Part shown: in pieces, positions 3,216 to 62,347 of the stretch
Layout: every line of letters begins with the position of its first letter
Position numbering within the stretch: the stretch's first letter is position 1
Assembly (NCBI GenBank): GCA_049274945.1
Contig: JBASTP010000002.1
Coordinates: 81,216 to 145,215, forward strand
Direction of reading: 5' to 3'
Origin: Patescibacteria group bacterium
GTDB lineage: Bacteria > Patescibacteriota > UBA1384 > GWA2-35-9 > JBASTP01
DNA length: 64,000 nucleotides
Notes under the pieces: generated by a model
Told to the model about the DNA's origin: nothing
Database searches by the model: none
Seen by the model: only the letters and a program-made list of their open reading frames with translations
Program-made: the position numbers and the translations under genes

Positions 3216-3249
3216 ATTCTACCATAATCGAGCGGCGTTGAACGGCCAG

Positions 3250-3283
3250 CGAAGCCCCAATTGCCTAAGAGCGGATCACGGAG
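3250..3283. repeat. 34-nt exact repeat, copy 1: GCGAAGCCCCAATTGCCTAAGAGCGGATCACGGA
   Basis: Identical 34-mer at 32356-32389. Both copies are intergenic and lie 3' of a minus-strand gene. Confidence 0.7.
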
Positions 3284-3412
3284 GATTCGGCCGGGCTGGG
3301 TTCCTGAGCGAAGTCGAAGGAGAGGCCAAAACCGAGTGCCAGGGAGGGATTTGCCGCTGGAGCAAATCAACTCCCGGCGCTCGTGGCAATGGGGCGAGCC
3401 TGGCCGGGTAAA

Positions 3413-19185: not shown

Positions 19186-19590
19186 ATGGCAACCACAAGC
19201 GCTGGGCGAGACAAGTGGTATAACCCCGTTAGCACTTTCGAGAGAAATCAAGCTATAGTTGTGAAGAATATTGGGGGTGGTGTCCGTTCGTCAAAAGACG
19301 ATCCTGATTTTTTTGTAGTAGAAACATCAGGCCTTGGTCCTATATGGGTACCCCAAGGAAATGACGTAGATGGTACCCCACACCTGAGAATTGAGGTGCA
19401 CCCGGAGATCAGTGGTGAGTACTTTGGAGGAGGCATGATCGATGTCAGCGGATATGGAAACAACACGTATGCTATTCTCGCATCTGCAACCGAAGAAGAA
19501 CTCTGTGAATTATTTGAACGAAATGGACTTGAATTCCCAGGCGTAACTGCTCGGTACGAGTTACTACCAAAATTAGTCAAAGTCAGTTAA
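19186..19590 (+). CDS. Hypothetical protein (134 aa)
   Basis: GGAG ribosome-binding site, with an upstream TTGAAA-16-TAATAAT promoter-like sequence at 19118-19146. No family recognised. Confidence 0.5.
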   Translation: MATTSAGRDKWYNPVSTFERNQAIVVKNIGGGVRSSKDDPDFFVVETSGLGPIWVPQGNDVDGTPHLRIEVHPEISGEYFGGGMIDVSGYGNNTYAILASATEEELCELFERNGLEFPGVTARYELLPKLVKVS

Positions 19591-19605: not shown

Positions 19606-19636
19606 ACCTTCACCACCGTAGCACACACGTGACTAC
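19606..19636 (+). terminator. Rho-independent terminator
   Basis: CCGTAGCACACACGTGACTACGG followed by TTTTTTG. Confidence 0.6.
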
Positions 19637-19707
19637 GGTTTTTTGTATCCGGCCCTTAAACCTCACACCTCCGAGGTATGAGGTTTAATTCAGTAACCGG
19701 CGAGAGG

Positions 19708-19833
19708 TACCAGCCGAGGGTGGGTTGCTAGCGCCACAGGAAGGGAGCATCCGATCACATAATACGGATTGTGATACGGAGCGACCGCTCCTGTAGAGCG
19801 CACACCCGAGGCGGTGCCCGAGCCAGGACCCGC
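19708..19833 (-). repeat. R150 repeat family, copy A (3'-UTR element of recJ)
   Basis: About 92% identical to 49357-49503 and shares conserved blocks with 25450-25595 (GCTAGCGCCRCAGGAAGGGAGCATC ... GGAGCGACCGCTCCTG ... CCCGAGCCAGGACCCG). Ends 3 nt from the recJ stop codon. Confidence 0.7.
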
Positions 19834-19835
19834 GA

Positions 19836-21506
19836 TTATTCCGCTTTCCGTATTCCCACCAACTTCAAATCCAAGTGGGTTCTGCCCTGCCAGGTGTTGA
19901 GCTGGGGCCAGAACGCCAGGTCAACCCGGCTGCCCACTGCAACCTGCGGCGCCTGGTCAGCCATGGAAAAACCAATTGCTTTAACGATCGCTTGCGAATG
20001 GTCAAACCCAACTTGGAGCTGCAAGTGGGCCTGCTCAGCACCCACCAATCGCGAACCCTTGACCACCACATTTTTGAGCGCAAGCACCGGATGGGGGTTC
20101 CCCACCCCGAACGGTTCCAAGGTGGAGAGGGTTTGGGTGAGGGCTATGGATAGCTCTTTAGGACTAATCTGGGCGTCAATCGTAATCCTCGGGATAAGAT
20201 CTTGATCGGATAGCTCCTTGTCAGCAAGCTTGCGAAGGGAACTATAAAAAGTGGCTAACTTACCCGAAGGCAGGCTTACCCCGGCGGCTCGGGCATGGCC
20301 GCCGAACGAGATTAAATCGGCCTTAAGTTTCTCAAGATTGTTAACAAGATGAAACGCATCAATCGAACGCGCCGAACCCTTGGCAATACCGTCTTCAATG
20401 CTTAACACAATGGCTGGGCGGTGGTGCTCGTCGGTCAATCTGCCGGCGACCAGGCCCACCACACCGGCGCCCCAGCCTTCCTTAGCTACGAGGATCACCT
20501 TATGGTGATCAAGGTTGCCTGAGGCGACCAGTGCCCTCGCCTCCTGCAACACCCGTTTAAGTTCTTCTTGGCGCTCAAGGTTAATGTCGCTCAGCGACTG
20601 CGCTAACTCTTTGGCTTGGACGCCATCGCGGGAAATCAGGAGGTAAAACGAACGCGAGGCATGGTCCATGCGGCCGGGCGCATTGATCCGCGGCGCCACA
20701 ATAAAACCAATCTGCCAACCGGAAATATCACCGTCGTGGAGCCCCGAAACTTCAAGCAGCGCCCGCAGCCCCAGCCGCTTGCGCTTAGCCATCACCATCA
20801 GGCCGTATTTCGCGATCAGCCGATTCTCTGAAGCGAGCGGCACCATATCTGAGATGGTTGAAATGGCGGCAAGATCCAGCTGCCAGCGGGAAAAATTGGG
20901 CTCATCGGCAGTGAGCGCCTGGGCCACCTTCCAGGCGAGGCCTCCTGCAGCATAATCCTTAAACTTTGATGGGCAGCCGGGCTGCTTGGGATTAATCACA
21001 ATCGCCTTGGGCAAGGTGCTACCGACCAAGTGGTGGTCAATGACGATCACATCCATCTTGGCTTTGCGGGCATAGGCAACCTCTTTTTCCGACCGTATGC
21101 CAAGATCAACGGTTAGAAGGAGCGTTACCCCTTCTTTTTTTAACGCATCGATCCCCTGTTTATTAAGGCCATACCCTTCGGCTCGCGAGGGAATATACAC
21201 CGATGCGTCCGGTCCACCCACCTTGAGCGCCAGGTAGTGGAGCGTTTCCCATAAAATGGCCGCCGCCGGAATGCCGTCGGCATCGTAGTCGGCAAAGATG
21301 CCAATTTTTTCTTTGCGTTCGATCGCTTGGGTAATCCGCTGAGTTGCCTCGGCTACACCCTTGATAGTGAACGGATCGATCGTGTCAGTCTCAAAATTTG
21401 GCTTGAGGAACCGCTCGTGCTCATCCTTTCCGATACCACGGTTCAGTAAAATCTGTTCAATCAGATCATCGGATTGCTTCGGAGCAAATTGCCAGCGCTT
21501 ATGCAT
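19836..21506 (-). CDS. recJ: Single-stranded-DNA-specific exonuclease RecJ
   Basis: DHH motifs (DYDADGI, VIVIDHH) and a DHHA1 domain. 556 aa. Confidence 0.85.
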   Translation of the reverse strand: MHKRWQFAPKQSDDLIEQILLNRGIGKDEHERFLKPNFETDTIDPFTIKGVAEATQRITQAIERKEKIGIFADYDADGIPAAAILWETLHYLALKVGGPDASVYIPSRAEGYGLNKQGIDALKKEGVTLLLTVDLGIRSEKEVAYARKAKMDVIVIDHHLVGSTLPKAIVINPKQPGCPSKFKDYAAGGLAWKVAQALTADEPNFSRWQLDLAAISTISDMVPLASENRLIAKYGLMVMAKRKRLGLRALLEVSGLHDGDISGWQIGFIVAPRINAPGRMDHASRSFYLLISRDGVQAKELAQSLSDINLERQEELKRVLQEARALVASGNLDHHKVILVAKEGWGAGVVGLVAGRLTDEHHRPAIVLSIEDGIAKGSARSIDAFHLVNNLEKLKADLISFGGHARAAGVSLPSGKLATFYSSLRKLADKELSDQDLIPRITIDAQISPKELSIALTQTLSTLEPFGVGNPHPVLALKNVVVKGSRLVGAEQAHLQLQVGFDHSQAIVKAIGFSMADQAPQVAVGSRVDLAFWPQLNTWQGRTHLDLKLVGIRKAE

Positions 21507-21523
21507 TTTTTATAATGTAGGTA

Positions 21524-21612
21524 AACAACCACAGATATCTGATCCACTGATTGACACTGATTAGGACTCCTATCTGTGTTTATCTGTGGAATAAATCAGT
21601 GGTTGTAGTCCT
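21524..21612. repeat. Division/cell-wall cluster junction element A (palindromic, CCACAGAT and CACTGAT motifs)
   Basis: AACCACAGATATCTGATCCACTGATTGACACTGATT...TATCTGTGTTTATCTGTGGAATAAATCAGTGGTTG. Related to the elements at 28986-29085, 30238-30322 and 33490-33530. Confidence 0.7.
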
Positions 21613-21615
21613 ACC

Positions 21616-22428
21616 TTATTTGTAATAAACATATCCTTCCACCCTCAAATCCACGTACTCTTTAATTTGGTCTTTTCGCTCGGTCCACACCAACTTGAGC
21701 GCCTCGAGCTGGCCGGCCAGCGAACGGCTGGTTTCAAAGAGCAAGCGCGGGCCGGTTTCGGTGTGGGCTTCGATCTGAAACGTCGATTGTTTTACGGTAA
21801 AATCCTTGATTTTAAGATCAACTGCTTGGGGTAACTCCGCCACTGCTCGCCGGACGAACTCAATAAAATCGGGGCTCACGACGGGCTGGTCTCGATTGAC
21901 CGCCAACCCTGATTCATCAACTACTTGCTTCGCAGCCTGGACGGTTGGGTGATCAGCCGGCACTTCCTTGTACGCATAGCCCTCCTTATCGAGCAAGTAG
22001 TACTTATCCTGGGATTTCCATAGGAGCACCGGGTCACGCTCAACTACTTGGATCCGCACAATGTCGGGCAGGCCGCGCACAATCTTAATGCGTTTAATTG
22101 AGGGCTGTTGCTCACGAAGTTTCTCCTCTGCCCGATGGCCGCCGAGCAAAAAAATGTTGCGGCCTTTGAGTTTTTCGATCTCGGCCTGCGTTTCCGGTTT
22201 CACTTCGCCTTGGATTTCGAGCTGCCGTACCTGGAACATCGGCGCGGTCAGCAAAAACCAAACGCCAATACCCAATACTGCAACGATTGCAATCGCCACA
22301 ACCCGACGGCCCGAAAACGGGAACGATGGGTCAGGCTTCGATTCTTCCGTCTGACCCAAAATACCGGGCTCGCGCCAAACCGGCTGCCGTTTGCTGCCCC
22401 CTACTTTTTTGCCAGGAAAAAAAATCAC
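21616..22428 (-). CDS. ftsQ: Cell division protein FtsQ/DivIB (POTRA domain)
   Basis: N-terminal transmembrane segment, a POTRA-like region (VRQLEIQGE...), and its position in the division/cell-wall cluster next to ddl. Confidence 0.6.
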   Translation of the reverse strand: MIFFPGKKVGGSKRQPVWREPGILGQTEESKPDPSFPFSGRRVVAIAIVAVLGIGVWFLLTAPMFQVRQLEIQGEVKPETQAEIEKLKGRNIFLLGGHRAEEKLREQQPSIKRIKIVRGLPDIVRIQVVERDPVLLWKSQDKYYLLDKEGYAYKEVPADHPTVQAAKQVVDESGLAVNRDQPVVSPDFIEFVRRAVAELPQAVDLKIKDFTVKQSTFQIEAHTETGPRLLFETSRSLAGQLEALKLVWTERKDQIKEYVDLRVEGYVYYK

Positions 22429-25404: not shown

Positions 25405-25449
25405 GCTAGCAGATTGACGGGTGGCGAAGTGGAGCCAAACCGAGGCAGT

Positions 25450-25595
25450 AAGCTAGCGCCGCAGGAAGGGAGCATCAGAGGACCGCAGCGAAGCGAGGTT
25501 CTCGGAGCGACCGCTCCTGCCGAAGTCGCCGTAGGCGACTGAGGCTGACCACTGCAGCAGAGCGCTGCCGAGGTTGGCCCGCGAGCCAGGACCCG
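25450..25595 (-). repeat. R150 repeat family, copy B (between the murB stop and the eno start)
   Basis: Shares the conserved blocks with copies A and C, but with different internal hairpins. Confidence 0.6.
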
Positions 25596-25613
25596 TCAAT
25601 TTGTTCCATTTTA

Positions 25614-26582
25614 TCACCACTGCCCAACGTACTCAATTTCTTCCTCGAGCACCTCGCCGGTTTTCTCACGCACCAGGGTGCGGATTCGTTCGGTAAGATC
25701 GCGAATATCAGAGCCACGAGCAGTACCAAGGTTCACAATCCAGTTAGCGTTCTTTGGCGAGAGTGCTGCCCCGCCCACCCTGAGCCGGTGGGCACCCGCC
25801 GCCCGAATCAAGTAGTTAGCGGTTTTCTTAATAAACTCGTCACTCTCAGTAAGCCCAGAGGGCCGACCCGCGGGATTTTTGAAAATTGAACCGGAGACCG
25901 TTTCTCCCTGTGGCTGCCGCTGCCGCCGCTTGCTATGCATCTCGCCGATTTTTCCGAGAATATCTTCGCGCTTGAACCGCTGAAACTGAACGGTAACCGT
26001 CAGAATAATGGGTTTTGGTTTACCTTCTTTGGCGAGTTGCTTAACCCTGCTCATCCGGTAGTCAAACGCGAACCAGGCATGATCAACTTGCTTAATGGTG
26101 CCATCGGGTAAAAGGAGGGTGGCCCCGCGCACGAAATCACCAATCATGCCGCCATACGCACCAGCGTTGCCGTAGACCGCACCGCCAATCGTGCCAGGAA
26201 TGGTGGCAAGGAACTCAAGACCACCGAGGTTACGCGCCGCCGCTTCCATAACCAGGCGAGCGCCGGGCACCCCGGCGTCAACGATGGCTTGCGACTTTTC
26301 GACCATCAAAGAAATATTTTTGGTTCGATTGTGGATTACGAGACCCGGAAAACCAAAATCCGAAAAAATGATGTTAGCGCCGCCACCCACTAAAAAGTAG
26401 GGCACGTTCGCTTGGGTTGCGAACGTAGCGGCCTCAATAATTTCCGCGCTGGTGTCGGCTTCAACATAAAAATCAGCCACGCCACCCAGGTGCATGGTGG
26501 TGTGCTCTGCCATCACTTCGTGTTCGCTAAAACGATCCCCAAACCGCTCCTTCATGGCGTCGGTGAATTGCGCGATAGTCAT
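25614..26582 (-). CDS. murB: UDP-N-acetylenolpyruvoylglucosamine reductase
   Basis: FAD-binding N-terminal domain (HTTMHLGGVADFYVEA) and a MurB C-terminal domain. Confidence 0.85.
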   Translation of the reverse strand: MTIAQFTDAMKERFGDRFSEHEVMAEHTTMHLGGVADFYVEADTSAEIIEAATFATQANVPYFLVGGGANIIFSDFGFPGLVIHNRTKNISLMVEKSQAIVDAGVPGARLVMEAAARNLGGLEFLATIPGTIGGAVYGNAGAYGGMIGDFVRGATLLLPDGTIKQVDHAWFAFDYRMSRVKQLAKEGKPKPIILTVTVQFQRFKREDILGKIGEMHSKRRQRQPQGETVSGSIFKNPAGRPSGLTESDEFIKKTANYLIRAAGAHRLRVGGAALSPKNANWIVNLGTARGSDIRDLTERIRTLVREKTGEVLEEEIEYVGQW

Positions 26583-28977: not shown

Positions 28978-28985
28978 AAATTAAG

Positions 28986-29085
28986 GTAGTAAAACAACCA
29001 CTGATGTTAATCCACTGATAATCACTGATTGGGCATACCTGATCTGTGTTTATCTGTGGATCAAATATCTGTGGCTGTGATACTT
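28986..29085. repeat. Division/cell-wall cluster junction element B (inverted copy of element C)
   Basis: GGTAGTAAAACAACCACTGATG...TATCTGTGGATCAAATATCTGTGGCTGTGATAC. Its ends are reverse complements of the ends of element C. Confidence 0.7.
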
Positions 29086-29090
29086 CATTA

Positions 29091-30215
29091 TTATGTAACT
29101 GTTCGCTTCGAAATATTAAGTAATATCCCTACCCCAATAAGCAGTGTTACGAGCGCCGATCCGCCATAACTCACAAACGGCAACGGTATCCCGGTAAGCG
29201 GCACAATACCAAGGTTAGCGGCTATGTTAACAAAGCTCTGTCCGGCGACCCAGCTGGCAATACCAACCGCGAGGAGTTTACCAAAATCATCAGGAGCCTT
29301 CCGGGCTATTCGCAAGCCGCGGAGTGCGACAAATATCAGCGCTGCAAGAAGCGGAATTGTCCGTAGAAAGCCAAGTTCTTCTACAATCACCGCAAAAATA
29401 GCATCGGTATGAGCTTGCGGCAAGTAGAGATACTTCTGCCTGGAATTGCCAAATCCCAATCCAAGTAGTCCGCCTGAGCCAATCGCTAAGATGGTTTGGT
29501 TGAACTGATAACCGGAACCAAGCAGATCAGCCGAAGGATTGAGAAATGTCAAAAAACGCTGCCACCGGTAGCTTGAAAATCGGATCAGCACGAAAAACAG
29601 AGCGAGCGCACTAAGACCCCCACCTAACAAGTGGATGGTCCGGGCACCGGCGGCCCAAAACATTGAGGCGGCGATCAAACTAATCACAATCACGGTGCCG
29701 AGATCAGGCTGTTTTACGATGAGTCCAACAAGCAGCAGTAAAAGGAGTGAAAACGGGAACAACCCTGATTCTACATTCCTGATTGCCTCACCGCGACGCT
29801 CAAGCCAGGCCGCCAAGTAAATCACAAAGGTAAGTTTTACAAGCTCAGAGGGCTGAAGTAGCACCGGACCAAGGTTGATCCAGCGGCTCGCGCCGGAGAG
29901 TTTCAAGCCGATCCCGGGAATGAACACCAGGACAAGCAAAACAATTGAAATCCCCATAAGCGGACTCGCAATCTTGCGCCAAAATCGGTAGTCAATGTTT
30001 GCCGAGATGGCCAGCGCCAGCATGCCTACCACTACGGCAATCGCTTGGCGAGTGAGGTAGTACCAATTAGTACCGAAACGCTCAAACGAGATCACCACCG
30101 AGGAAGATGAGATCATTAAAATCCCGAACAGCGTGAGGGCTGTTACGACAAAGAGCAACCAATAATCAAAGCGTGGATAGAAAGCTTGCCGGTAACGACC
30201 GAGAATAGTAGCCAA
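29091..30215 (-). CDS. ftsW: Peptidoglycan glycosyltransferase FtsW (SEDS family)
   Basis: Ten-transmembrane SEDS profile. Positioned between murD and murG. Confidence 0.8.
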   Translation of the reverse strand: MATILGRYRQAFYPRFDYWLLFVVTALTLFGILMISSSSVVISFERFGTNWYYLTRQAIAVVVGMLALAISANIDYRFWRKIASPLMGISIVLLVLVFIPGIGLKLSGASRWINLGPVLLQPSELVKLTFVIYLAAWLERRGEAIRNVESGLFPFSLLLLLLVGLIVKQPDLGTVIVISLIAASMFWAAGARTIHLLGGGLSALALFFVLIRFSSYRWQRFLTFLNPSADLLGSGYQFNQTILAIGSGGLLGLGFGNSRQKYLYLPQAHTDAIFAVIVEELGFLRTIPLLAALIFVALRGLRIARKAPDDFGKLLAVGIASWVAGQSFVNIAANLGIVPLTGIPLPFVSYGGSALVTLLIGVGILLNISKRTVT

Positions 30216-30237
30216 TGAAGTTCCTCCTTAATAAGGA

Positions 30238-30322
30238 AGTATCACGACCACAGATATCTGATCCACTGATTTTCACTGATCTGTGATTATCTGTGGATTG
30301 ACATCAGTGGTTGTTTTACTAC
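30238..30322. repeat. Division/cell-wall cluster junction element C (overlaps the murD stop codon)
   Basis: GTATCACGACCACAGATATCTGATCCACTGATTTTCACTGATCTGTGATTATCTGTGGATTGACATCAGTGGTTGTTTTACTACC. Confidence 0.7.
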
Positions 30323-31623
30323 CTTCTTATCGATTCTAGCACAAGCTCTTTGAATCGCCGACCTCGCTCTTCCAAATTCCCGAATTGATCGTAGGAAGCG
30401 GCAGCTGGTGATAGGAGCACAATGTTGCCAGGGTTTGCCGATGACGTTGCAATTTCCATCGCCTGATCAAGCCCACCAGCGTGAATTGACCCTGGAATCA
30501 ATTTGTGGAGCACCCTACCGGTTTGGCCAATCAAAATTACCTGGCTCGTTCGCTCCTTGATTGGCCTCAGCAGCGGTTTTAGGTTGATTTTCTTGTCATA
30601 CCCGCCGGCGATCAAGATCACCGGCTTGCTAAACGAGCTGAGGGCGGCAATGGTGGCTTCGGGAGTGGTGGCGGCAGAGTCGTTGTAGAACTTTACGCCG
30701 TCGCGCTCGCCGACATATTCGAGAACGTGCTCAACACCCGGAAAAGTAGCTAGGGCCTGGTAGCTAGTAGCTAGCGACACACCGAAGAGTCGGCCGACTT
30801 CGGCAGCGAGGGTGGCGTTCATCAAATTATGTTCTCCCGGAACCCTTAGGGTTAACTGTTTGAGCGGCCGCTGTACCTTAACTAGGCTTGCCCGCGCGCC
30901 TTTGGCAATCTTTTGGACGTTTTTGTCGCGCCAGTTGAGCACCGCGAAGTCATCGCGTTTTTGAAATCTCACAATATTACACTTCGCATCCAGGTAGGCG
31001 CGCATCGTGTTGTGCCAATCCAGGTGGTCGGGCGTAATGTTCACGACTACCGAAATATTGGGTGATTTTTTGATAATCGGCAGCCAGGCAAGTTGGAACG
31101 ATGAAAGCTCGAGCACCACAAGGTCACTCGGTTTAATCTTATCTAGTTCCGAAAGTAACGATTTGCCAATATTGCCACCGAGCCAAATGTTTGAGTCTTT
31201 GAGTCTTTGAGTCTTTGAGTGTTTGAGCAGTGCAAAAATCATTCGCGCAACCGTTTCTTTGCCATTAGTCCCAGTTACCCCAATAATTTTTGCCGGGCAC
31301 CGTTCCATAAAAAGGTTGATTTCAGTTGTCATGGGGATACGCCATTTTGAGGCCATCTTGAGATAGGGTGAGTCGGGCTTAACGGCCGGGTTTACCACAA
31401 TAAGGTTGCTTTTTTTCAGCTCGCGGCTATCGTGTTTTCCGAGAATGAAATTGACTTTAAGACCTTTGAGTTTTTTGAGTGATTCTGTAAGTTCATCTGC
31501 GGTTTTGAGGTCAGTTACGGTAACCTGCGCGCCCCGAGCCACAAGCCAGCGGGTCACGCCAATTCCTCCCCCGAACCGCCCCAGCCCCATCACCAACACT
31601 TTTTTGCCTTTTAAATCAGTCAT
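30319..31623 (-). CDS. murD: UDP-N-acetylmuramoylalanine--D-glutamate ligase
   Basis: N-terminal Rossmann (KKVLVMGLGRFGGG), GVTGTNGKETV P-loop. Contains an in-frame 9-nt tandem repeat (CTCAAAGAC x4) at 31188-31230 and a GCTAGTAGCTAG mini-repeat at about 30760. Confidence 0.85.
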   Translation of the reverse strand: MTDLKGKKVLVMGLGRFGGGIGVTRWLVARGAQVTVTDLKTADELTESLKKLKGLKVNFILGKHDSRELKKSNLIVVNPAVKPDSPYLKMASKWRIPMTTEINLFMERCPAKIIGVTGTNGKETVARMIFALLKHSKTQRLKDSNIWLGGNIGKSLLSELDKIKPSDLVVLELSSFQLAWLPIIKKSPNISVVVNITPDHLDWHNTMRAYLDAKCNIVRFQKRDDFAVLNWRDKNVQKIAKGARASLVKVQRPLKQLTLRVPGEHNLMNATLAAEVGRLFGVSLATSYQALATFPGVEHVLEYVGERDGVKFYNDSAATTPEATIAALSSFSKPVILIAGGYDKKINLKPLLRPIKERTSQVILIGQTGRVLHKLIPGSIHAGGLDQAMEIATSSANPGNIVLLSPAAASYDQFGNLEERGRRFKELVLESIRR

Positions 31624-32342: not shown

Positions 32343-32355
32343 CTTATAAAGCGGC

Positions 32356-32389
32356 CTGCGAAGCCCCAATTGCCTAAGAGCGGATCACG
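32356..32389. repeat. 34-nt exact repeat, copy 2
   Basis: Identical to 3250-3283. Lies between the mraY stop and the pgeF start. Confidence 0.7.
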
Positions 32390-32412
32390 GATGGAGCGAA
32401 CTAAGCCGCTAC

Positions 32413-33465: not shown

Positions 33466-33489
33466 GTAATACTCGATTTAATGTAGGGC

Positions 33490-33530
33490 GGCAACCACAG
33501 ATTTATGCCACAGATAACCACAGATTATTT
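33490..33530. repeat. Division/cell-wall cluster junction element D (three direct CCACAGAT repeats, overlaps the murF stop codon)
   Basis: GCAACCACAGATTTATGCCACAGATAACCACAGATTATTTC; spacings of 14 and 10 bp. Confidence 0.65.
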
Positions 33531-40090: not shown

Positions 40091-40298
40091 ATTTTAGAAA
40101 AATTATCTGGCTCGGGTACCGCCTCGGGCGTGCGCTCTACTCGCCTCCGGCTCGCCCTCCGCCTCGCTGCTTGGTAGCTCCTGCCCTTCGACAAGCTCGG
40201 GGTCCCGTCGTCCAGGCAGCTCAGCGGGGCAGGAGCGCTTCGCTTCCTGTGGCGCTAGCAACCCGCCTTCGGCTGGTACCTCTCGCTAAACAGCTTAA

Positions 40299-40541: not shown

Positions 40542-41045
40542 TTGGTTAATGGTTCGCTTTTGGATCCCCAGCGCGGCGGTGTTCCGATTAGTGATGGTGA
40601 GTGAGATGGTAACTCCTTATTGAAACAAAAAAGCTTAAAGTAATTGGCGGCCGGCAGCGGTGGAAAGCTTCCCCGTGGCGTCTCTCCCGATTTTGAAGTC
40701 GTGATTGAGCCATTTTTGAGGGAACCCCTCCTTTTGCTTTGTGTTTTTTAAAGAAAGATTAGTCCTTTTTATTTTGATCCCAGCTCACCCTTAATGGGTG
40801 GGTCAGGACACATGTGCCGCTGCCGACCTATCCATAAAACAAAAATAAGTTGAAAACAGCTTGTTCATCAGCTCACGTGTGCGCTTTATGCTTCGCACCC
40901 TGCGCCACTCCGCTTGGCAGCTCAACGCACTAAGCGTGCATTTCGCTCCAGGCTGCGCGGCGGGGTTGGAGCAGCGCCTTCGGCGCTTTCCAATGCGCTA
41001 GCGACCCACGTTCGCTTGATGAACTTCGCGTTTTCTCGATAACCG

Positions 41046-49109: not shown

Positions 49110-49356
49110 TCCAGTACCTCCAGATTGTTCCGGTGCCAACCCTTCGACAAGCTCAGGCTAAACGAAAAACCGCCTTGTCGGCGGCCCTTCGAAAGTGAAA
49201 TGTTTTTGTGATTTCAGCAATCGCAAGGTACCGCCCTCTCATCAAGGAGAATAATGACTCCAAGAGCAAGTTTGGTTCTTACTGAATGCTTCATCACACT
49301 ATATAATTTACCGACAGTAAGACGAGTTGTCAAGTATTTTAGCGGGCGGCGAAGGG

Positions 49357-49503
49357 TGCCAGTCGAGGGTGGGTTGCTAACGCCACAGGAAGGGAGCATC
49401 CGATCACAAATTACGAATTGTGATACGGAGCGACCGCTCCTGCCCCGCGGAGCGGGGTCCGAAGGATAGAGTGCACACCCGAGGCGGTACCCGAGCCAGA
49501 CCG
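49357..49503 (-). repeat. R150 repeat family, copy C (3'-UTR element of mutM; carries an extra 24-nt hairpin insert)
   Basis: About 92% identical to copy A, apart from the insert CCCCGCGGAGCGGGGTCCGAAGGA. Confidence 0.7.
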
Positions 49504-49510
49504 CTCAAAA

Positions 49511-50625: not shown

Positions 50626-51930
50626 CTACAGCAGGGTTGGCTGGACTGTCAACCCTTCGACTCGACTCCGCTCGCTCACGGCATCGCCAAACACCGAAAC
50701 TTTACCATACTCACCATCGTAGCCCGGTTCAATACTAATCGTGCCCTCCCGCACGCGGCGCAGCCCCTCGATAATGCGCGGATCGAGCCGGCCCTCGAGC
50801 TCATTGAGCGGAGCATCCACCAGGAGGGCATATTCGTTACCAAAATCGCTAATAATTTTTTGGTAGCGGTCTTTGATAAATTGACTCGCTTCTCCTTTGC
50901 CCAATGCCTCTGAAATAATTTGCGATAATTGCACGAGTTTTTTGAACGGCGGGCGGGTAATGCCCGATGCTTTGGCCGCCTCCTCAACGCTGCGGTCAGC
51001 CAACGCGTCCACGCGGTATTCAACCCCCACGGTTACCGGCCGCTCACACTTGGGACAAATGCCATTCAATTCTTTTGTCTGGGCCGGCGAGAGCCGCACC
51101 TTGTGCTCGCGGTGCCCGTCCCAATGATATTTGCCCTCTTCCGGGAAAAATTCGATGGTGTAATCAATGCGCGGGGTAATTGTTGGCTTCCAAGTCTTTG
51201 CCGTCGAATTCTTAATGGCCTCAATAATCGTATCGTAACTCGGCTCCTCCATCTCAAAAATCGTGGCTTCGCGCATTAAGTTACCGCCCGAGTGGCCGTC
51301 CCCTGCTGAAACAATGGCCACATGATCGAGCGATGAAAGCCGCCAGTTCATGAGCGGGTCGGAAGACAGGCCGGTTTCAATAGCATGGATATGCTGGGCC
51401 TGATCGCCGAAACATTCCTCAATCGAATCAAATCCGGACATCGAACCAAACAGTGAAAACCAGGGGGTCCAGGCGTGCGCCGGAATAATTTCGATGCGTG
51501 GGTCAATTGATTTAAGAAGTTTCACTAAATCATGGGCCGAAATGCCAAAAATCGGCCGGCCGTCGGCATACAGGTTGCCACGCTTGCCAAGTTCTGTGTT
51601 AATTTTTGCAACCGTTTCGAGCGACGGCGCTAAAATCACGTTGTGAATGCGGCGCAACTTGCCGCCCTGGCTATAAATGCTCGAAATTTCCGAGGTTAAT
51701 ATGTAAAAAGGGCCGGTTTCGTCATCACCCACTCGCCGATATAGCCCATTTCCCAGCGGCTCGAGCTGTTTTTTTAGTTCTGCAAACCAAAGCGGGTGGG
51801 TAAAATCCGCTGAACCGATTAGACCAATCCCTTTAATTTTACTCCAGTTATAGAGACCCTCAACGTCAAGGTTTTTTGATGTGGCGCGGGAATATTTGGA
51901 ATGAAGATGGAGATCGGCAATCAGGCGCAT
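50626..51930 (-). CDS. PHP-domain protein, EndoQ/TIGR00375-like
   Basis: MRLIADLHLHSKYSRATS (PHP motif I), further His/Asp clusters, and a C-terminal zinc ribbon CPKCERPV. Confidence 0.55.
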   Translation of the reverse strand: MRLIADLHLHSKYSRATSKNLDVEGLYNWSKIKGIGLIGSADFTHPLWFAELKKQLEPLGNGLYRRVGDDETGPFYILTSEISSIYSQGGKLRRIHNVILAPSLETVAKINTELGKRGNLYADGRPIFGISAHDLVKLLKSIDPRIEIIPAHAWTPWFSLFGSMSGFDSIEECFGDQAQHIHAIETGLSSDPLMNWRLSSLDHVAIVSAGDGHSGGNLMREATIFEMEEPSYDTIIEAIKNSTAKTWKPTITPRIDYTIEFFPEEGKYHWDGHREHKVRLSPAQTKELNGICPKCERPVTVGVEYRVDALADRSVEEAAKASGITRPPFKKLVQLSQIISEALGKGEASQFIKDRYQKIISDFGNEYALLVDAPLNELEGRLDPRIIEGLRRVREGTISIEPGYDGEYGKVSVFGDAVSERSRVEGLTVQPTLL

Positions 51931-51932
51931 GA

Positions 51933-51952
51933 CCAGATGTTATCACATCTGG
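51933..51952 (-). promoter_or_regulatory. Palindrome CCAGATGT-TATC-ACATCTGG immediately upstream of the EndoQ-like start (putative operator)
   Basis: Perfect 8-bp arms, 2 nt from the ATG. Partially conserved in the duplicate at 52921-52990. Confidence 0.35.
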
Positions 51953-51999
51953 AGTGCAAAATTCAAAGTGAAAAATGGAAAGTTAATCATCAATACCAT

Positions 52000-52774: not shown

Positions 52775-52924
52775 TGGAGTAATTCCTTACAAAATTTTTG
52801 AGATCGAGTTGCTGCTTCGCAACTTTAAAGTCCTCTTTTGCTTTTTGTTGCCAAAATTCGATTTTATCTTGTAGCTCCACACTTACATGATACGCTTTAT
52901 TAACTGATTTTAGAAGGGCCAATG
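52764..52924 (-). CDS. Short HEPN-like helical ORF upstream of the MNT gene (possibly truncated; TTG start)
   Basis: KAYHVSVELQDKIEFWQQKAKEDFKVAKQQL. The longer track ORF reads through the duplicated EndoQ-like fragment. Confidence 0.3.
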
Positions 52925-52990
52925 GAGATCGGCAATGAGACGCATGGCCAGATAGTACCACATCTGGAGTGAAAAATTGAGAGCTATTTG
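52921..52990 (-). pseudogene. Duplicated promoter/5' fragment of the EndoQ-like gene (about 85% identical to 51900-51965)
   Basis: Encodes an 11-codon remnant MRLIADLHWPF* and retains the CCAGAT...ATCTGG palindrome. Confidence 0.55.
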
Positions 52991-55986: not shown

Positions 55987-56027
55987 GAGTTCCTTTCTCA
56001 GATTTTTCGTAAGTTGGGTGTTGGCGA

Positions 56028-56147
<120 letters not shown>

Positions 56148-56310
56148 AAAGGTGGGTTGCTCTCTCTCGGAATGAATCCCAGAGTTGGAACAGGTAAGCA
56201 TTTGACCGATTAGTACGCCTTGGCTCAAACCCTTGCGGGTCTTCCACCTAGCGCCTATCAAGGTCGTGGTCTTCGACCGGTCTATAACGAAGTCTAATCT
56301 TGGGGAGGGC

Positions 56311-56341
<31 letters not shown>

Positions 56342-56419
56342 GCCCGAGCATAGCTACCCAGCACTGCCCTTGGTAGGACAACTGGTACACCAGAGGCTCG
56401 GCTCCTCCGGTCCTCTCGT

Positions 56420-57165
56420 CACGTACTCTTCTATCACTAGAAGCGTAGACTATATCTTCACCCACCTTAGGCGGGGCCGGCATATTAGCTGCCTTTCGGC
56501 AACTCTCAAGCAGATGCTTTCAGTCGTTACGGGGTCAAGCCTAAAACCTCATATAATTCGTCTTTGGTTTTCTTTCTTCGAGTGACGTAGTTTTGCTGCT
56601 GCACACTCAGTATTAAATCAACCAGGTATCTCTTCTCTCTAGGAATCAAACGCAATTCACCTTTTTGAGAGAGTAGTATTGCTGCCTTGTAGATGGCTCT
56701 CGCCTGGATTTTTTTGAAACGGATATATGGCAATAATTTTTTAAGAATTCGTGCCACCTGTTGAAAACCATTAATCCGTAATTCAGTAATACCATCATTT
56801 CGGCGCGAGATATATCCGATCTTGATCCTTTTCTGAATCCACATTAACGGTTGTTCATGACGGCTATCTTGGTAAAAACAGATCGTAACCATGAATCTGT
56901 GACCAAGATTGCCATCTTTCCGTTTCTTGACTTGAAGCATTAAGCTCCCGTCACCATCAAGAAAACCAGCAATATATGCAAAATGAGTTGTAGACTGACT
57001 TCCCACGGTATTGTCTTAACTGGTTTGTGGTCCTCAAGTTAATTGTCTCACAATTTGCTGACCGAAGCAAACTGCCTGCAATGCACTAACCACTATTCCA
57101 ATTAAGATTCCACCGTTATAAGCCGGATTGTCATGCTCGATTGCTCGAACAAGTAGCAATTATTT
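56420..57165 (-). mobile_element. Group I intron D inserted inside the sarcin-ricin loop (between CCUAGU and ACGAGAGG, near E. coli U2656/A2657); carries a LAGLIDADG ORF
   Basis: Exon junction restores CTAGT|ACGAGAGGACCGG. Intron ends ...GATATAGTCTACGC...GTACGTG (terminal G), with P7-like GACTAT/ATAGTC pairing. Confidence 0.65.
56527..57006 (-). CDS. LAGLIDADG homing endonuclease (single motif, 159 aa) within intron D
   Basis: HFAYIAGFLDGDGSLML... Confidence 0.8.
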   Translation of the reverse strand: MGSQSTTHFAYIAGFLDGDGSLMLQVKKRKDGNLGHRFMVTICFYQDSRHEQPLMWIQKRIKIGYISRRNDGITELRINGFQQVARILKKLLPYIRFKKIQARAIYKAAILLSQKGELRLIPREKRYLVDLILSVQQQNYVTRRKKTKDELYEVLGLTP

Positions 57166-57216
57166 ACTAGGAGGGGAACCCCTCAGACTTCAACGCCCAC
57201 AGCAGATGAGGACCGA

Positions 57217-57564
57217 CAGTCTGTTGCTTGATAACCACATCCATAACCGAAATGTATCTGTGGCGCCCAGCACCTTTTGAATAAAAGGTACTGGATCTGC
57301 ATGTCGCCATGCAGCTCGGACTATATCTTCCTCGCCTTTTCAGGCGGGTCTAGCGTATAGTCTCTGAGGATTTCTGCATTACTGCAGATCTTTCCTGCTG
57401 ATTGTCTCCGTAGGTACAGCACCGTATGGCGCGTACCGTAGTCCAACCGGTTGCCCGTTGGAATTTTAGAGAGTTTCCAGCATATAGTCCCGACGGCCTT
57501 ACGGTGTCGGGATCCCGATCTCTTTCGAGCATCGGGACTAAATTTTGAGACAGCAAGGTTGTTT
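57217..57564 (-). mobile_element. Group I intron C, ORF-less (348 nt), inserted at GAGACAGU|UCGGUCC (peptidyl-transferase-centre A2602 region, near L2593-2604)
   Basis: Exons rejoin as ...GTCGCAAGACAGT|TCGGTCCTCATCTGCTGTGGGCG. P7-like GGGACTATATG ... GATATAGTCCG. Terminal G. Confidence 0.6.
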
Positions 57565-57664
57565 ACTGTCTTGCGACGTTCTGAACCCAGCTCACGTGGC
57601 GTTTTAACTGGCGAACAGCCAGACCCTTGGGCGCTGCTCCACGCCCAGGATACGCCGAGCCGAC

Positions 57665-58555
57665 CATGTTTCTCCATGATTACTCATGGCATAGACTATA
57701 TCACCATCCCGCGTTTGGCGGGAGTTCGGCGTCTGATCTACTATTAGAGCAGATCTCACCCGTCTCGCATTAGTTAGAGTCCTCATATAATGCGATAGGG
57801 ATCAGTCGTTACGGGGTTATTGAGAAGCAACTTTATATCGCATGATTGGGGGTATAAAGGGTCGAATGATTTTATGGAGCTTTCGTGATTCAGTATTATT
57901 GAAATACATTCGAAGACCTCTTCCTCCATCTTGATACGCTTTTGCTCGTAAACCAAAGTTTTGGTCTAAAGCTTCAATGAGTAGTTGAATGTCTTTTGGA
58001 TCGAACGCATGGGTCGAGATGCTAGATGTTTTACCTCCATTGAGGTTACCGTCATCCATATACCAAGTGGCTAATGATCGTGGCGACAACATTTCTGAAA
58101 TGTTCAACGGCACTATTTTCTTGCCGTTTCGATAAAACTGTTTGTGGATTTGCGTTAGAATGGGGTGCCGAAAGGTTCGAAACCACCAAGATTTCGTCAC
58201 GTTCTCTCCATCTAAACTAACAAATCTCTGTTGGATGCCACTCGGAGCCCATTTCTTAAATGCTCGCCACTTCCATAAAACATAATCTCTAAATTTTGCC
58301 CCATGTTCGATTTTAAAGTTTGCATTCTTTGCATCGTGACCAACCCTCATTGTGCCATCGCCCAAAAGGGAACCTATTACGATTGATTCCTGACGAGGTT
58401 TCAATCGTAGTCTTCTCTTTCGAGCAATCAACATTTTTGTTTGTGACATTGCTTCTTTGTAAACTTCCCTCGGTATTACCCTCTTTCCTAATTATATCAG
58501 GAGTAGGGCTCCACCGATATAAGCCAAATTTTTCATGCAGGATTGCTCCTGCAAG
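57665..58555 (-). mobile_element. Group I intron B inserted at CACCUCGAU|GUCGGCUC (near L2500-2504); carries a LAGLIDADG ORF
   Basis: Upstream exon follows GGGATAACAGGCTGATCGGGCCCAAGAGTCCATATCGACGGCCCGGTTTGGCACCTCGAT. Downstream exon resumes GTCGGCTCGGCGTATCCTGGG. Confidence 0.7.
57817..58449 (-). CDS. LAGLIDADG homing endonuclease (double motif, 210 aa) within intron B
   Basis: [10 protein letters not shown] and WYMDDGNL motifs. Confidence 0.8.
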
Positions 58556-58612
58556 CGACATTTCTATCGAGGTGCCAAACCGGGCCGTCGATATGGACTC
58601 TTGGGCCCGATC

Positions 58613-58649
<37 letters not shown>

Positions 58650-59062
58650 TCTAGCAGTCTCGTACCTGACTAGAGGATCACTAACTCCGCCTTTCGGCAC
58701 TGCGCGGCTTGTTTGCCTTGCAGTTAAGCTGGCATATGGGTTTGCCCTATCATCTGGATTTCCATCCCAGACTAGCCAACCTTTGAACTCCTCCGTTACC
58801 TTTTGGGAGGACGCCGCCCCAGCGAAACTACCCACCAACCACTGTTCCCCAACAAACGTCGGGGTTAGAATTTCCAATCGTCGAGAGGGGTTTTTCATGG
58901 TCGCCCTTGCGGGCTCCCCCATCACTACACACGAACAATCAAAAACTCAATGGCAAGCTGTAGTAAAGCTCCACGGGGTCTTTCCGTCTTGCTGCGGGTA
59001 CAGCGCATCTTCACGCTGATTGTAATTTCACCGGGTCCCTGGTTGAGACAGTTTCCAGACCG

Positions 59063-59647
59063 TTATGCCATTCGTGCGGGTCGGAACTTCGTGTTCACCC
59101 CACTATTACTAGTGGCACTGACTATATCTTTCAAGATAGAACGATATTTACGATTTCCACTGTTCATCTGATTAGCTAGCTGCTCAATCTTCGCCAAACC
59201 ATGTTCATTTATATGTTCGTGATTTAGCATTAAACTACAGATTTCCTTGAATAGTAGAAAGTCTCGTTGTTTCTCGGATTGTAATGGAAACTGATCGAAA
59301 AACGGGATAATTCTTTCCATTAAATCTTTTAGCGATCTTACTTCATACTTCAATGTTTTATCAGAATAATCAGGGCGGATTGAACCGCATCCAAAATGTT
59401 TCTGCATCTGAAATAATACGTTTGCTCGATCACTATTTTGACTTACCGAGAAACTCGGTCTCACTTCCCATCCAGTCTTAATTGATGCCCGAGGATTAAA
59501 TGAAACACAGAAACATCCTTCGCCATCAACATATCCCGAGATGTAAAATGAGAAATCTCGTTGTGATATTGTTCTATTTTGAGTCGGCGTATTAGTTATC
59601 ATTTTGATAACTCTCGGCCCGAAGGCCTCAGTCGATACGGGGTCCAA
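59063..59647 (-). CDS. LAGLIDADG homing endonuclease (194 aa) of intron A; its last 9 codons read across the 3' splice site into the 23S exon
   Basis: YISGYVDGEGCFCV motif. C-terminal ...VNTKFRPARMA* is encoded by the exon sequence AAGTTCCGACCCGCACGAATGGCATAA. Confidence 0.8.
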   Translation of the reverse strand: MDPVSTEAFGPRVIKMITNTPTQNRTISQRDFSFYISGYVDGEGCFCVSFNPRASIKTGWEVRPSFSVSQNSDRANVLFQMQKHFGCGSIRPDYSDKTLKYEVRSLKDLMERIIPFFDQFPLQSEKQRDFLLFKEICSLMLNHEHINEHGLAKIEQLANQMNSGNRKYRSILKDIVSATSNSGVNTKFRPARMA

Positions 59648-59757
59648 CTGTAGTGGACTTCCCTCGGTATTACCCTTCTTAATTATATCAAGAATAGGGC
59701 TTCACCGATATTAGCCGACAAGGGCAAGCGGATCTCGGCCGCACGCCGGATCCTTGT
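59090..59757 (-). mobile_element. Group I intron A inserted at CUUGUCGGGU|AAGUUCCGACC (near L1951); carries a LAGLIDADG ORF
   Basis: Exon 1 ends ...GGTAGCGAAATTCCTTGTCGGGT. Intron ends ...GATATAGTCAGTGCC...GAACACG. Exon resumes AAGTTCCGACCCGCACGAATGG. Confidence 0.7.
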
Positions 59758-60737
59758 ACCCGACAAGGAATTTCGCTACCATCGAACGGTTCATGTATGT
59801 TAACTCATGGTCTCCCATGAGATCGGACTATATCATCTCCAATGGTGGAGTCTGGCGTATAGTCTCTGAGGGTTCCCATCCCATGGGATGGGCCTTCCCT
59901 GCTGATTGTCTCCGTAGTCCAACCGCTTGCGCGTTGGAATTTTAGAGAGTTTCCAGCATATAGCCAGATTTTTGTTATCGATAACTACTAACCTTAATAG
60001 TTACCGCTGCCGTTCACTCGCGCTTAGGTTTGGAGCTCATGCACAGCTTGCGCCATGCAATCACCCCGCCCCGTAACGTACGAGCACTGGGCAGGCATCA
60101 CTCCGTATACGTCCCTCAAAGGGTTCTGCACGGAGCTAAGTTTTTGTTAAACAGTCGCCTGGAACTCGTTTGCTGCGATCCCGACTTTACGTCGGGACAG
60201 GGCATATCCCTAAGTTACGCCCGATTTTTTGCCGAGTTCCTTAACCAGGGTTTTCCCGATCACCTGAGGCTACTCGCCTCGTCCACCGGAGGCGGTTTGC
60301 GGTACGGTTACCAACTGTAGTGGCCTGCCACTTTTCTAGACGCCCGCTCCCCCAGACGCTACGTAGCCGTAGCAACATCTGAGCTTGCAAACGTGTCATG
60401 ACAGGATAGTCTATTGGTAGTGCCGGAATATTGACCGGCTGTCCTTCTCTTTTGTACAAAAATTAGGACCGACTAACCCCCCGCCGATTGCCGTTGCGGA
60501 GGAAACCTTGGACATGCGGTGGCCTGATTTTTCATCAGGCTAATACGTTACTCATGCCGGCATTCTCACTCCCATACGCTCCAGGGTCGCTTACGCTTCC
60601 CCTTCACTGCAAATGGGACGCTCCCCTACCACGCCGATGCATAGCATCGACATCCGTAGCTTCGGTAAAGGCCTTAAGCCCCGTTGAATTTTCGGCGCAA
60701 TCCACCAATCGGCCAGTGAGCTGTTACGCTATCTTTG

Positions 60738-60775
<38 letters not shown>

Positions 60776-61335
60776 GGGTGAATTACTTCCTTCTCCACTG
60801 AGGCCTTATTTAGGGACCTTAGCTGACGGTCTGGGTTGTTTCCCTTTTGACTCGTGAAGCTTAGCCCTCACGGTCTGACTAGCCGCCTCAAACCCTCGGC
60901 ATTCGGAGTTTGGTTGGATTTGACACCCGAAGGTGCCAAAATCCATTCAGTGCTCTACCTCCGAGGATGTAGCGGCCGCTATACCTATGCATATTTCGGG
61001 GAGAACCAGCTATCTCCGGGTTCGCTTGGCATATTACCCCTATCCCCAAGTCATCCCCTAGTTTTGCCACACTAGTGGGTTCGGACCTCCCCCCGACTTT
61101 CATCGGGGTTCATCCTGCTCAGGGATAGATCACCCGGTTTCGGGTCTATCCGATCGGACTCATCGCCCTATTAGGACTCGCTTTCGCTGCGGCTCGTCGC
61201 CTGAGGCGACTTAACCTTGCCCGAGCGGATAACTCGCCGGCTCATTCTTCAAAAGGCACGCCGTCACCCCGCCAAAGGCGGGGCTCCGACTCCTTGTAAG
61301 CACATGGTTTCAGGTACTATTTCACTCCCCTACCC

Positions 61336-61382
<47 letters not shown>

Positions 61383-62243
61383 GAAAGCATATTTAGCCTT
61401 AGGAGACGATCCTCCCATATTCTTCCCACTGGATTTCACGTGTCCAATGGTACTTTTCTTTGGCACTAGGCCAAAGGATCAATCACGGAGCACGACACAG
61501 TTTTGGCTACGGGGCTATTACCCGCTCTGGCCGGCCTTTCCAGACTCGTTCGCCTACCATGTTATGGCGCTTTCGATCGAGGCTCTTCCCGTTTCGCTCG
61601 CCACTACTCCGGGAATCGCAAAAGAACATTAAAGTTGACAAACGGCTGACTATAATTCAGCCGTCCACCAGCTCGAATACTCTCTTTCCCCCTAACGGGG
61701 GATGTTGCTTTCTTGTCCTCTGCTTACTGAGATGTTTCAGTTCGGCAGGTGCCCAATCCCGATATAATCGGGATTAACGCGTCTTCCACGCGCTGGGTTG
61801 CCCCATTCGGAGATCCCCGGATCAATGCTTCGTTGCCAGCTCCCCGAGGCTTATCGCAGGCTCGTACGTCCTTCTTCGGTGCTTTCCGCCAAGGCATCCA
61901 CCATGTGCCCTTATTCGCTTACCTGTTCCGACTCTGAGAGTAATCTGAGGGCGAAACCCTCGGTTTCTCCCTCAGCGCTCGCGTCGGCAAAGCCGACCCC
62001 GATGCAAAATCGGGGCTTCGCGCTCGCTGCTCCCTCTTCCGCTGTAAAAGCATTGAGGAAACGAGATTACTTTTCGGAACTTGTTACTTTTTGTTCAAGT
62101 TCAGGGTTTAAAAAAGTCCGCTCCAGGCGGACTCATTGCAATGAACTACCTAAAACATAGCCTTAGTTCATTGGAACCAGTCCTCCTGGGAAATAGCTAG
62201 TTGTTGGCGGGTAACCATATGTTGTTTTGTCTGAACCAACCCT

Positions 62244-62272: not shown

Positions 62273-62347
62273 CCCCTTCGACAAGCTCAGGGTTGATACT
62301 GAGCAAGGTCGAAGTATCAAGCCCTATAATTTAGCCGTTTTACGAAC

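Follow-up and report, generated by a model that had tools for sequence, protein, structure and literature searches.

A family of GC-rich, rod-shaped repeats in the intergenic spacers of Berkelbacteria-like Patescibacteria

The window, a 64,000-nt stretch of a contig from a Patescibacteria group bacterium, carries several copies of a structured element next to its housekeeping genes. Copy A (19697–19834, + strand, 73 bits with the covariance model) lies between recJ, which is on the − strand with its stop codon at 19836–38, and the terminator of ORF134 on the + strand. Copy B (25415–25598, + strand) is a full-length copy (TGACGGG...CCCGTCA) in the murB–eno spacer, and copy C (49341–49505, + strand) adjoins mutM. 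The stop codons of recJ, murB (25614–16), and mutM (49511–13) are 1, 15, and 5 nt past the ends of the elements, respectively. An earlier note on this DNA had described these three copies, and they are real: the blocks CGCCRCAGGAAGGGAGCATC (with up to three mismatches) and GGAGCGACCGCTCCTG (with up to two) each occurred exactly three times, where the note had located them, while 0.00 and 0.01 matches were expected by chance from shuffles. The identities that it had given to the adjoining genes were confirmed as RecJ, MurB, and Fpg/MutM, and copy B is followed by enolase, as it had said. Copies A and C, for which it had reported about 92% identity, are 92% identical over 96 nt and 94% identical over 33 nt. 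Copy C belongs to the subfamily of copy A and has an extra hairpin; the reported insert length of 24 nt is exact (CCCCGCGGAGCGGGGTCCGAAGGA, placed between CTCCTG and TAGAG). The boundaries of the copies had been drawn too short. Alignment with copies from elsewhere showed that the true units begin 10–35 nt further 5′ and extend from GCGGGUGGCGAAG... to ...CAGGACCCGC.

The family is also larger than the three copies first listed. The window contains five type-1 elements (A, B, and C on the + strand, D and H on the − strand) and two elements of a sister family, type 2, whose end architecture is as in type 1. Type-1 copies are imperfect palindromes of 110–220 nt without an ORF. Copy D (40107–40286, − strand) was found by a repeat search. 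Its arms are 94% complementary to the arms of copy A, and it ends 16 nt upstream of the ATG (40090) of ftsI (the PBP/FtsI gene) in the sense orientation. Copy H (40859–41030, − strand) was found by a motif scan and the covariance model, with a weak match of 13.7 bits. It is divergent, in that the architecture is kept and the arm sequences differ yet still pair, and it starts 15 nt after the mraZ stop codon, again in the sense orientation. The type-2 copy T2a (3243–3406, + strand, fold z = −5.0) has the ends GGCCAG-CGAAG-CCCC ... GGGG-CGAG-C-CUGGCC and an interior that differs from type 1; a − strand TPR gene has its stop codon 6 nt away from the 3′ end of this copy. T2b (32350–32410, + strand) is a 61-nt short form in a 70-nt spacer between the mraY-like and Cu-oxidase_4 genes. 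The two repeat families make up about 1.7% of the housekeeping region of the window.

All copies fold into a long rod, formed by pairing of the 5′ and 3′ arms along their full extent. From the outside in, its helices are P1 (GCGGGU/ACCCGC), P2a (GGC/GCC), P2b, P3, and P4. A first internal loop, GAA/GA, follows P2a and is replaced by three Watson–Crick pairs in one subfamily; a second loop, C-GA-G/C-GA-G, lies between P3 and P4. The arms contain conserved purine–purine mismatches at both places (GGC-GAA-GC/GC-GA-GCC and C-GA-G/C-GA-G). A K-turn reading of GGC-GAA-GC/GC-GA-GCC was rejected because its bulge is 1 nt, not the 3 nt of the Kt-7 consensus, and an SRP-like reading of GGAAGGGAGCA was rejected because no SRP model matched. 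P1 (7–8 bp, covarying) is found in about 10 of the 14 aligned copies. It is absent from copy A, which is without the 5′ half of this terminal stem, from D, L008, and E, and also from H, which is outside that alignment. The conserved single strands of the apical junction read UAAGCAAGCGCC(A/G) and YAGAGCG on the 5′ and 3′ sides, respectively. The apical hairpin H-a (19737–19793 in copy A, + strand) has a variable tip and a nearly invariant base (CAGGAAGGGAGC...GCGACCGCUCCUG), which reads CAGGA-A-GG-GA-GC ... GC-GA-CC-GC-UCCUG. Beyond H-a there are zero, one, or two further hairpins, which are perfectly paired and wholly different between copies; entire hairpin tips are swapped from one copy to another. 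The rod persists without the core in copies D, F, and H. In copy D, all that is left of H-a is CAGGA-A-GCGAAGC-GC-UCCUG, alongside about 100 nt of other hairpins. The most compact copy, from upstream of mraY in the relative L017, is 113 nt long and has a fold z-score of −6.8. The most conserved part of the element is internal (H-a and the junction) and not at the termini, unlike in classical MITEs.

The earlier note had taken the conserved helices and variable stem-loops as the mark of a structured element, and covariation confirmed this. The covariance model that it had named as a check also helped to turn up copy H in the window. Since MAFFT and RNAalifold alignments misregistered the arms between subfamilies, covariation was tested on 14 copies aligned by hand, after excision of the variable tips and with N padding. 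In this alignment, which was fitted to the structure and so biases pair counts towards it, paired cells reached 96.1% compared with 84.6% in shuffles, and none of 500 shuffles reached the observed value. Pairing dropped to 33–46% in controls with slid partners. Double compensatory changes were seen in 13 of 33 pairs, and they fall between a handful of subfamilies, so that they represent few independent events. Examples are GCCAA/UUGGC, GUGCC/GGUAC, and GCCCA/UGGGC in one helix, GGCAG/CUGCC, GGGUG/CACCC, and GGGAG/CUCCC in another, and CAGGA/UCCUG and UUGGA/UCCAA in a third. Arm-templated correction of palindromic DNA can also produce double changes, with no need for selection on RNA.

The two strands are not equivalent. 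Folding favours the + strand in 10 of 11 copies (−71.5 kcal/mol, against −58.8 kcal/mol for the − strand, in the compact copy), and the mismatches of the + strand comprise 39 purine–purine (32 G.A and 7 A.A) and 6 pyrimidine–pyrimidine cases, the excess being the conserved tandem G.A motifs. Along with an invariant core next to covarying arms, this asymmetry would fit independently transcribed small RNAs in many copies, where the + strand is the RNA and the H-a core and junction are a putative protein-binding or catalytic centre. We consider such small RNAs quite improbable. G.U and A.C mismatches are equally frequent (7 and 5) and thus uninformative on the strand, the core can be lost while the rod is kept, as in D, F, and H, and neither a consistent promoter upstream nor a consistent terminator downstream of the elements was found. 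Moreover, copies abut coding sequence or sit 1–20 nt away from it on both sides. By GC skew, the + strand of the elements is lagging-strand sequence and the structured strand is mostly leading-strand template, which does not clearly favour the usual lagging-template ssDNA model.

From a uniform orientation of the copies, the earlier note had placed the elements in 3′ UTRs. Copies D and H are sense, however, and orientation is mixed overall, with about 12 copies antisense and 5 sense to presumed transcription. In relatives, copies were found upstream and downstream of genes, both sense and antisense. This mixed orientation indicates that the family is not a 3′-UTR element. A termination element, another candidate of the note, did not hold up either, as no hairpin with a U-tract was called at any of the five window copies on either strand. 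Since the transcribed strand varies by copy and promoters or terminators do not consistently accompany the elements, it is hard to argue for a function that depends on one RNA strand. The neighbouring genes are recJ, radA, murB, eno, mutM, ftsI, mraZ, metK, secF, ybaB, and genes for transketolase, aminoacyl-tRNA synthetase, and a GH-like protein. They are mostly single housekeeping genes with no shared function. A promoter-like site (TTGAGT-17-TAAAAT with an upstream TG) was noticed at 25608–25636 on the − strand, within the 3′ end of murB. An eno transcript from this putative promoter would carry the reverse complement of copy B as its 5′ leader.

The RecJ of the window is 100% identical to a protein from a Patescibacteria MAG, and its nearest relatives are annotated as Candidatus Berkelbacteria. 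Eight true copies came from a metagenome scan, all of them in a single sample (Ga0213870). On the contigs of close relatives that encode RecJ or MurB homologues, there were another five type-1 copies, a stub, and a type-2 copy. In total, 13 further type-1 copies and one further type-2 locus were found in relatives, which are Berkelbacteria-like Patescibacteria. The core pattern had only one match in 185,579 species genomes, a chance match inside a Rhizobium gene, and viral contigs, plasmids, and phages gave no element matches. Judged from these searches, only a narrow clade carries the element family. Literature searches turned up no published account of such CPR elements.

Copies have been gained and lost between genomes with orthologous proteins that are 75–94% identical. 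At the recJ–radA junction, the window has copy A and ORF134, L011 (RecJ 90% identical) has an empty spacer of 14 nt, and L012 and L013 (87%) have a type-2 element. Upstream of mraY, the window has no copy and L017 (MurB 94% identical) has the 113-nt copy. After a 315-aa PIN-like gene, L012 has a copy and the window has none. In the murB–eno spacer, the window has the full copy B and L017 also has a full copy, while L018 (86%) has an unrelated AT-rich palindrome and L019 (75%) has a 27-nt stub. The stub, TGACGGGAGGCGAGCCAGGACCCGTCA, is made of the two ends of copy B joined at a GCGA repeat that faces itself across the stem. At orthologous loci of L003 and L004 (flanking protein 77% identical), the copies belong to different subfamilies, and the one in L004 is nearly identical to copy B, which occupies a different locus in the window. 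In L006, a full copy is nested between the ends of another. By these site comparisons, copies move or get replaced often, selection or homogenization keeps the arms and the core constant, and the tips behave as exchangeable cassettes; no clean filled-versus-empty junction was recovered among the compared sites.

ORF134 (19186–19590, + strand) has a good ribosome-binding site and its own terminator, a hairpin with a T-run at 19624–19645, and it has no Pfam domain. Since it is absent from the recJ–radA junction of L011, it is a strain-specific insertion beside copy A. The idea that the elements carry cargo genes was rejected, because ORF134 and a 177-aa ORF beside copy E are unrelated and neither has a Pfam domain. 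Other AT-rich palindromic repeats were seen in L017 (1178–1360 and 4512–4636) and L018 (4371–4479). They occupy spacers where the window has a type-1 element, a type-2 element, or no element, and several repeat families seem to use the intergenic spacers of this clade as general landing sites.

The murB–eno copies of the window and L017 are identical at 124 of 126 arm positions (98%), and both of their hairpin tips have been replaced. The murB genes are 87.5% identical overall and 70% identical at third codon positions. Read from the sequences, the arm identity means purifying selection or ongoing homogenization, and such constancy is unlike a purely selfish, decaying insert. Conservation at this orthologous site keeps a host-selected cis-acting RNA alive as the main rival to a mobile repeat. 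The element would then protect mRNA ends, serve as an RNase III-type processing site, or insulate genes from one another, and it would have spread by occasional duplication. In line with this, the arms at murB–eno are far more conserved than the synonymous sites, the ends are kept even in the L019 stub, many copies within operons must be transcribed because they lie 10–20 nt from start or stop codons, and the structure is strongly supported, with fold z-scores down to −6.8. Yet the transcribed strand varies between copies (about 12 antisense and 5 sense), whereas the G.A mismatches are on one strand only. The same spacers are without copies in close relatives, there is no terminator signature, and the neighbouring genes have no function in common. 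We regard a cis-acting RNA as unlikely, but as an alternative to be taken seriously.

The elements were compared with known RNA and mobile element classes. A search of Rfam 15 with the window, copy A, and eight related contigs found no match at the elements under either gathering or permissive thresholds, which agrees with the earlier note's impression that they are not obviously an RNase P RNA, SRP RNA, or tmRNA. Elsewhere in the window, the only Rfam matches were rRNA, tRNA, and group I introns. The note had also listed an IS200/IS605 end of the kind that gives rise to omega-RNAs. A relic of an insertion sequence or a guide-type RNA (an IS200/IS605 end, a TnpB/IscB omega-RNA, or an IS110-type bridge RNA) would be compatible with structured, multi-copy elements of 110–220 nt that have no target-site duplications. 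But no tnpA, tnpB, iscB, or IS110 recombinase gene adjoins any of about 20 copies, and the Rfam omega-RNA, HEARO, and IS605-orfB models did not match any copy at E values up to 5–10. In addition, the whole element is one palindrome and not a scaffold with a guide, and its variable parts are perfectly paired tips and not open, guide-holding loops. Such a relic is very improbable and is largely refuted within the analysed sequence. A TnpB gene with an omega-RNA at L003 and L004 was rejected, because the preceding 374-aa genes are 77%-identical orthologues without a transposase or TnpB domain. Weak, sub-threshold glycoside-hydrolase matches were found in only one of the two 374-aa proteins.

Like MITEs, the elements are short, non-coding, and multi-copy, and their sites are filled or empty in relatives. 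Target-site duplications, which the earlier note had proposed to look for, were not seen: no common direct repeat flanks about 12 copies. No transposase, RAYT, TnpB, or integrase gene was found beside any copy or in the annotated part of the window, and neither a cognate autonomous IS with the same ends nor a Y1 transposase was found in the window and 18 related loci (about 147 kb in total). Among the candidates of the note, a miniature non-autonomous mobile element fits best.

Several copies lie directly after stop codons and at the borders of strain-variable segments (ORF134 at A, AbiEii at F, and the 177-aa ORF at E). They could therefore be attC-like sites for single-stranded DNA recombination that mark the insertion boundaries of accessory genes. 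The likeness extends to attC sites such as the Vibrio VCR, which are imperfect palindromes of about 60–140 nt just after ORFs, with conserved mismatches, a structure that is more conserved than the sequence, and a variable central structure. However, the present elements end in GCGGGU...ACCCGC and contain no RYYYAAC/GTTRRRY (R″/R′) core sites, and no intI or other integrase gene was seen in the window or the related loci. They occur in both orientations next to single housekeeping genes for the most part, without cassette arrays, and their structured strand is mostly leading-strand template. Thus, attC-like sites are very unlikely.

REP, REPIN, and BIME sequences are mobilized by RAYT, an IS200/IS605-type Y1 transposase. 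The present elements are similar to them in being GC-rich imperfect palindromes in AT-rich spacers, often within 20 nt of stop codons, with conserved stem mismatches and without target-site duplication. Both also have subfamilies, persist at orthologous sites, and are restricted to lineages. REPs are defined by a length of 20–40 nt, a stem of 8–9 bp, and a GTAG or CGTC tag, and they often form inverted dimers (PMC3733652). The present elements differ from REPs by their unit length of 110–220 nt, four stacked helices, and a branched apex. Their most conserved part is apical, no RAYT was seen, and their terminal tetranucleotide varies (GACG or AGCG). A terminal CGTC is found in only one subfamily (B, L004, L017B, and the L019 stub), and the other subfamilies end in CGCT. 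ERIC/IRU (127 bp), Correia/NEMIS, RUP, BOX, and enterobacterial RU-1/2/3 are small mobile sequences (PMC2229807, PMC2759123). In common with this group, the present elements are 100–200-nt, full-length rods that are found in either orientation within transcripts, have internal indels that result in size classes, and consist of modular hairpin units, as in BOX. They differ in having no sequence similarity to the group, in being from a different phylum (CPR), and in their invariant internal core. Target duplications (TA or other), as known from Correia elements and many MITEs, are absent from the present elements. TwoAYGGAY and other multi-copy RNA motifs (Rfam RF01731) also have covarying stems, conserved loops, an association with repeats, and dozens of intergenic copies per genome. 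The present family has no Rfam match and different loop sequences, and its transcription as discrete RNAs is unsupported.

We therefore consider the chances slightly better than even that these elements are lineage-specific, GC-rich, rod-shaped interspersed repeats, that is, non-coding and non-autonomous DNA that spreads and turns over between the spacers of Berkelbacteria-like CPR. The closest tradition is that of REP, ERIC, and MITE sequences, and the family is probably an undescribed family of bacterial interspersed palindromic repeats that is a member of no defined one. For these repeats, we infer that a folded single strand would be recognized by a trans-acting factor and then copied or recombined. 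The recognized strand could be DNA exposed at replication, or RNA if the element is co-transcribed, and the recognized parts would be the arms and the H-a core. The interior may be lost by slippage between short direct repeats that face each other (GCGA...GCGA), which would leave stubs. Any effect on the host would come from a very stable hairpin lying within mRNAs, whichever its orientation. A bolder proposal is that the elements are a new mobile structured nucleic acid defined by its internal three-way junction and invariant G.A hairpin (CAGGAAGGGAGC/GCGACCGCUCCUG), not by its termini. The core would then be a putative site for a CPR recombinase, a reverse transcriptase, or self-cleavage, and the element would grow by cassette-like tip exchange. 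We regard this proposal as a long shot.

Streamlining and a scarcity of mobile DNA are considered typical of CPR/Patescibacteria genomes. The repeats described here turn over between related genomes while their arms stay almost invariant, and they probably help to fragment the assemblies of these organisms. If a dedicated enzyme reads the folded core, it would represent new machinery for recognizing single-stranded DNA or RNA in an uncultivated phylum. If there is no such enzyme, the repeat family would still be useful as a strain marker, and it warns against taking such rods for riboswitches or small RNAs.

Other features of the window were also noticed. The 23S rRNA gene apparently spans about 5.7 kb (56172–61944, − strand), and no 16S gene was found upstream of it in the window. 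This region contains a match to the Rfam LSU model (58515–61924), two group I intron matches (59804–60006 and 57297–57557) whose introns share repeats, and three LAGLIDADG ORFs (59063–59647, 57817–58449, and 56527–57006). A 28-nt stem pairs 61917–61944 with 56172–56199, just before the 5S gene (56019–56135). A second, AT-rich palindromic repeat family with the words CCACAGAT/ATCTGTGG and CCACTGAT is present at 21509–21620, 28979–29092, 30228–30328, and 33479–33507. Each copy is just upstream of the start of a − strand gene (recJ, murG-like, ftsW-like, and mraY-like), and the family could be an operator/promoter module or another mobile repeat. The 20-mer CCCTTCGACAAGCTCRGGGT occurs three times, at 40184–40203 inside copy D, at 49140–49159 about 200 nt from copy C, and at 62274–62293 in the 23S leader. 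Read on the − strand, the 20-mer folds into a small hairpin, CCC-UGAGCUUGUCGAA-GGG, and a similar module is present in copy F of L011. Two 62-nt stretches (51907–51968 and 52922–52983), 1015 nt apart and 85% identical, overlap the starts of − strand ORFs and may be duplicated gene starts or leaders. Finally, the 23S–5S spacer contains ACCTGCGAAAGGTGGGTTGCT (56141–56161), which matches a segment of the 5′ arm in copy A (GGTGGGTTGCT) at 81% identity, and this likeness is probably due to chance.
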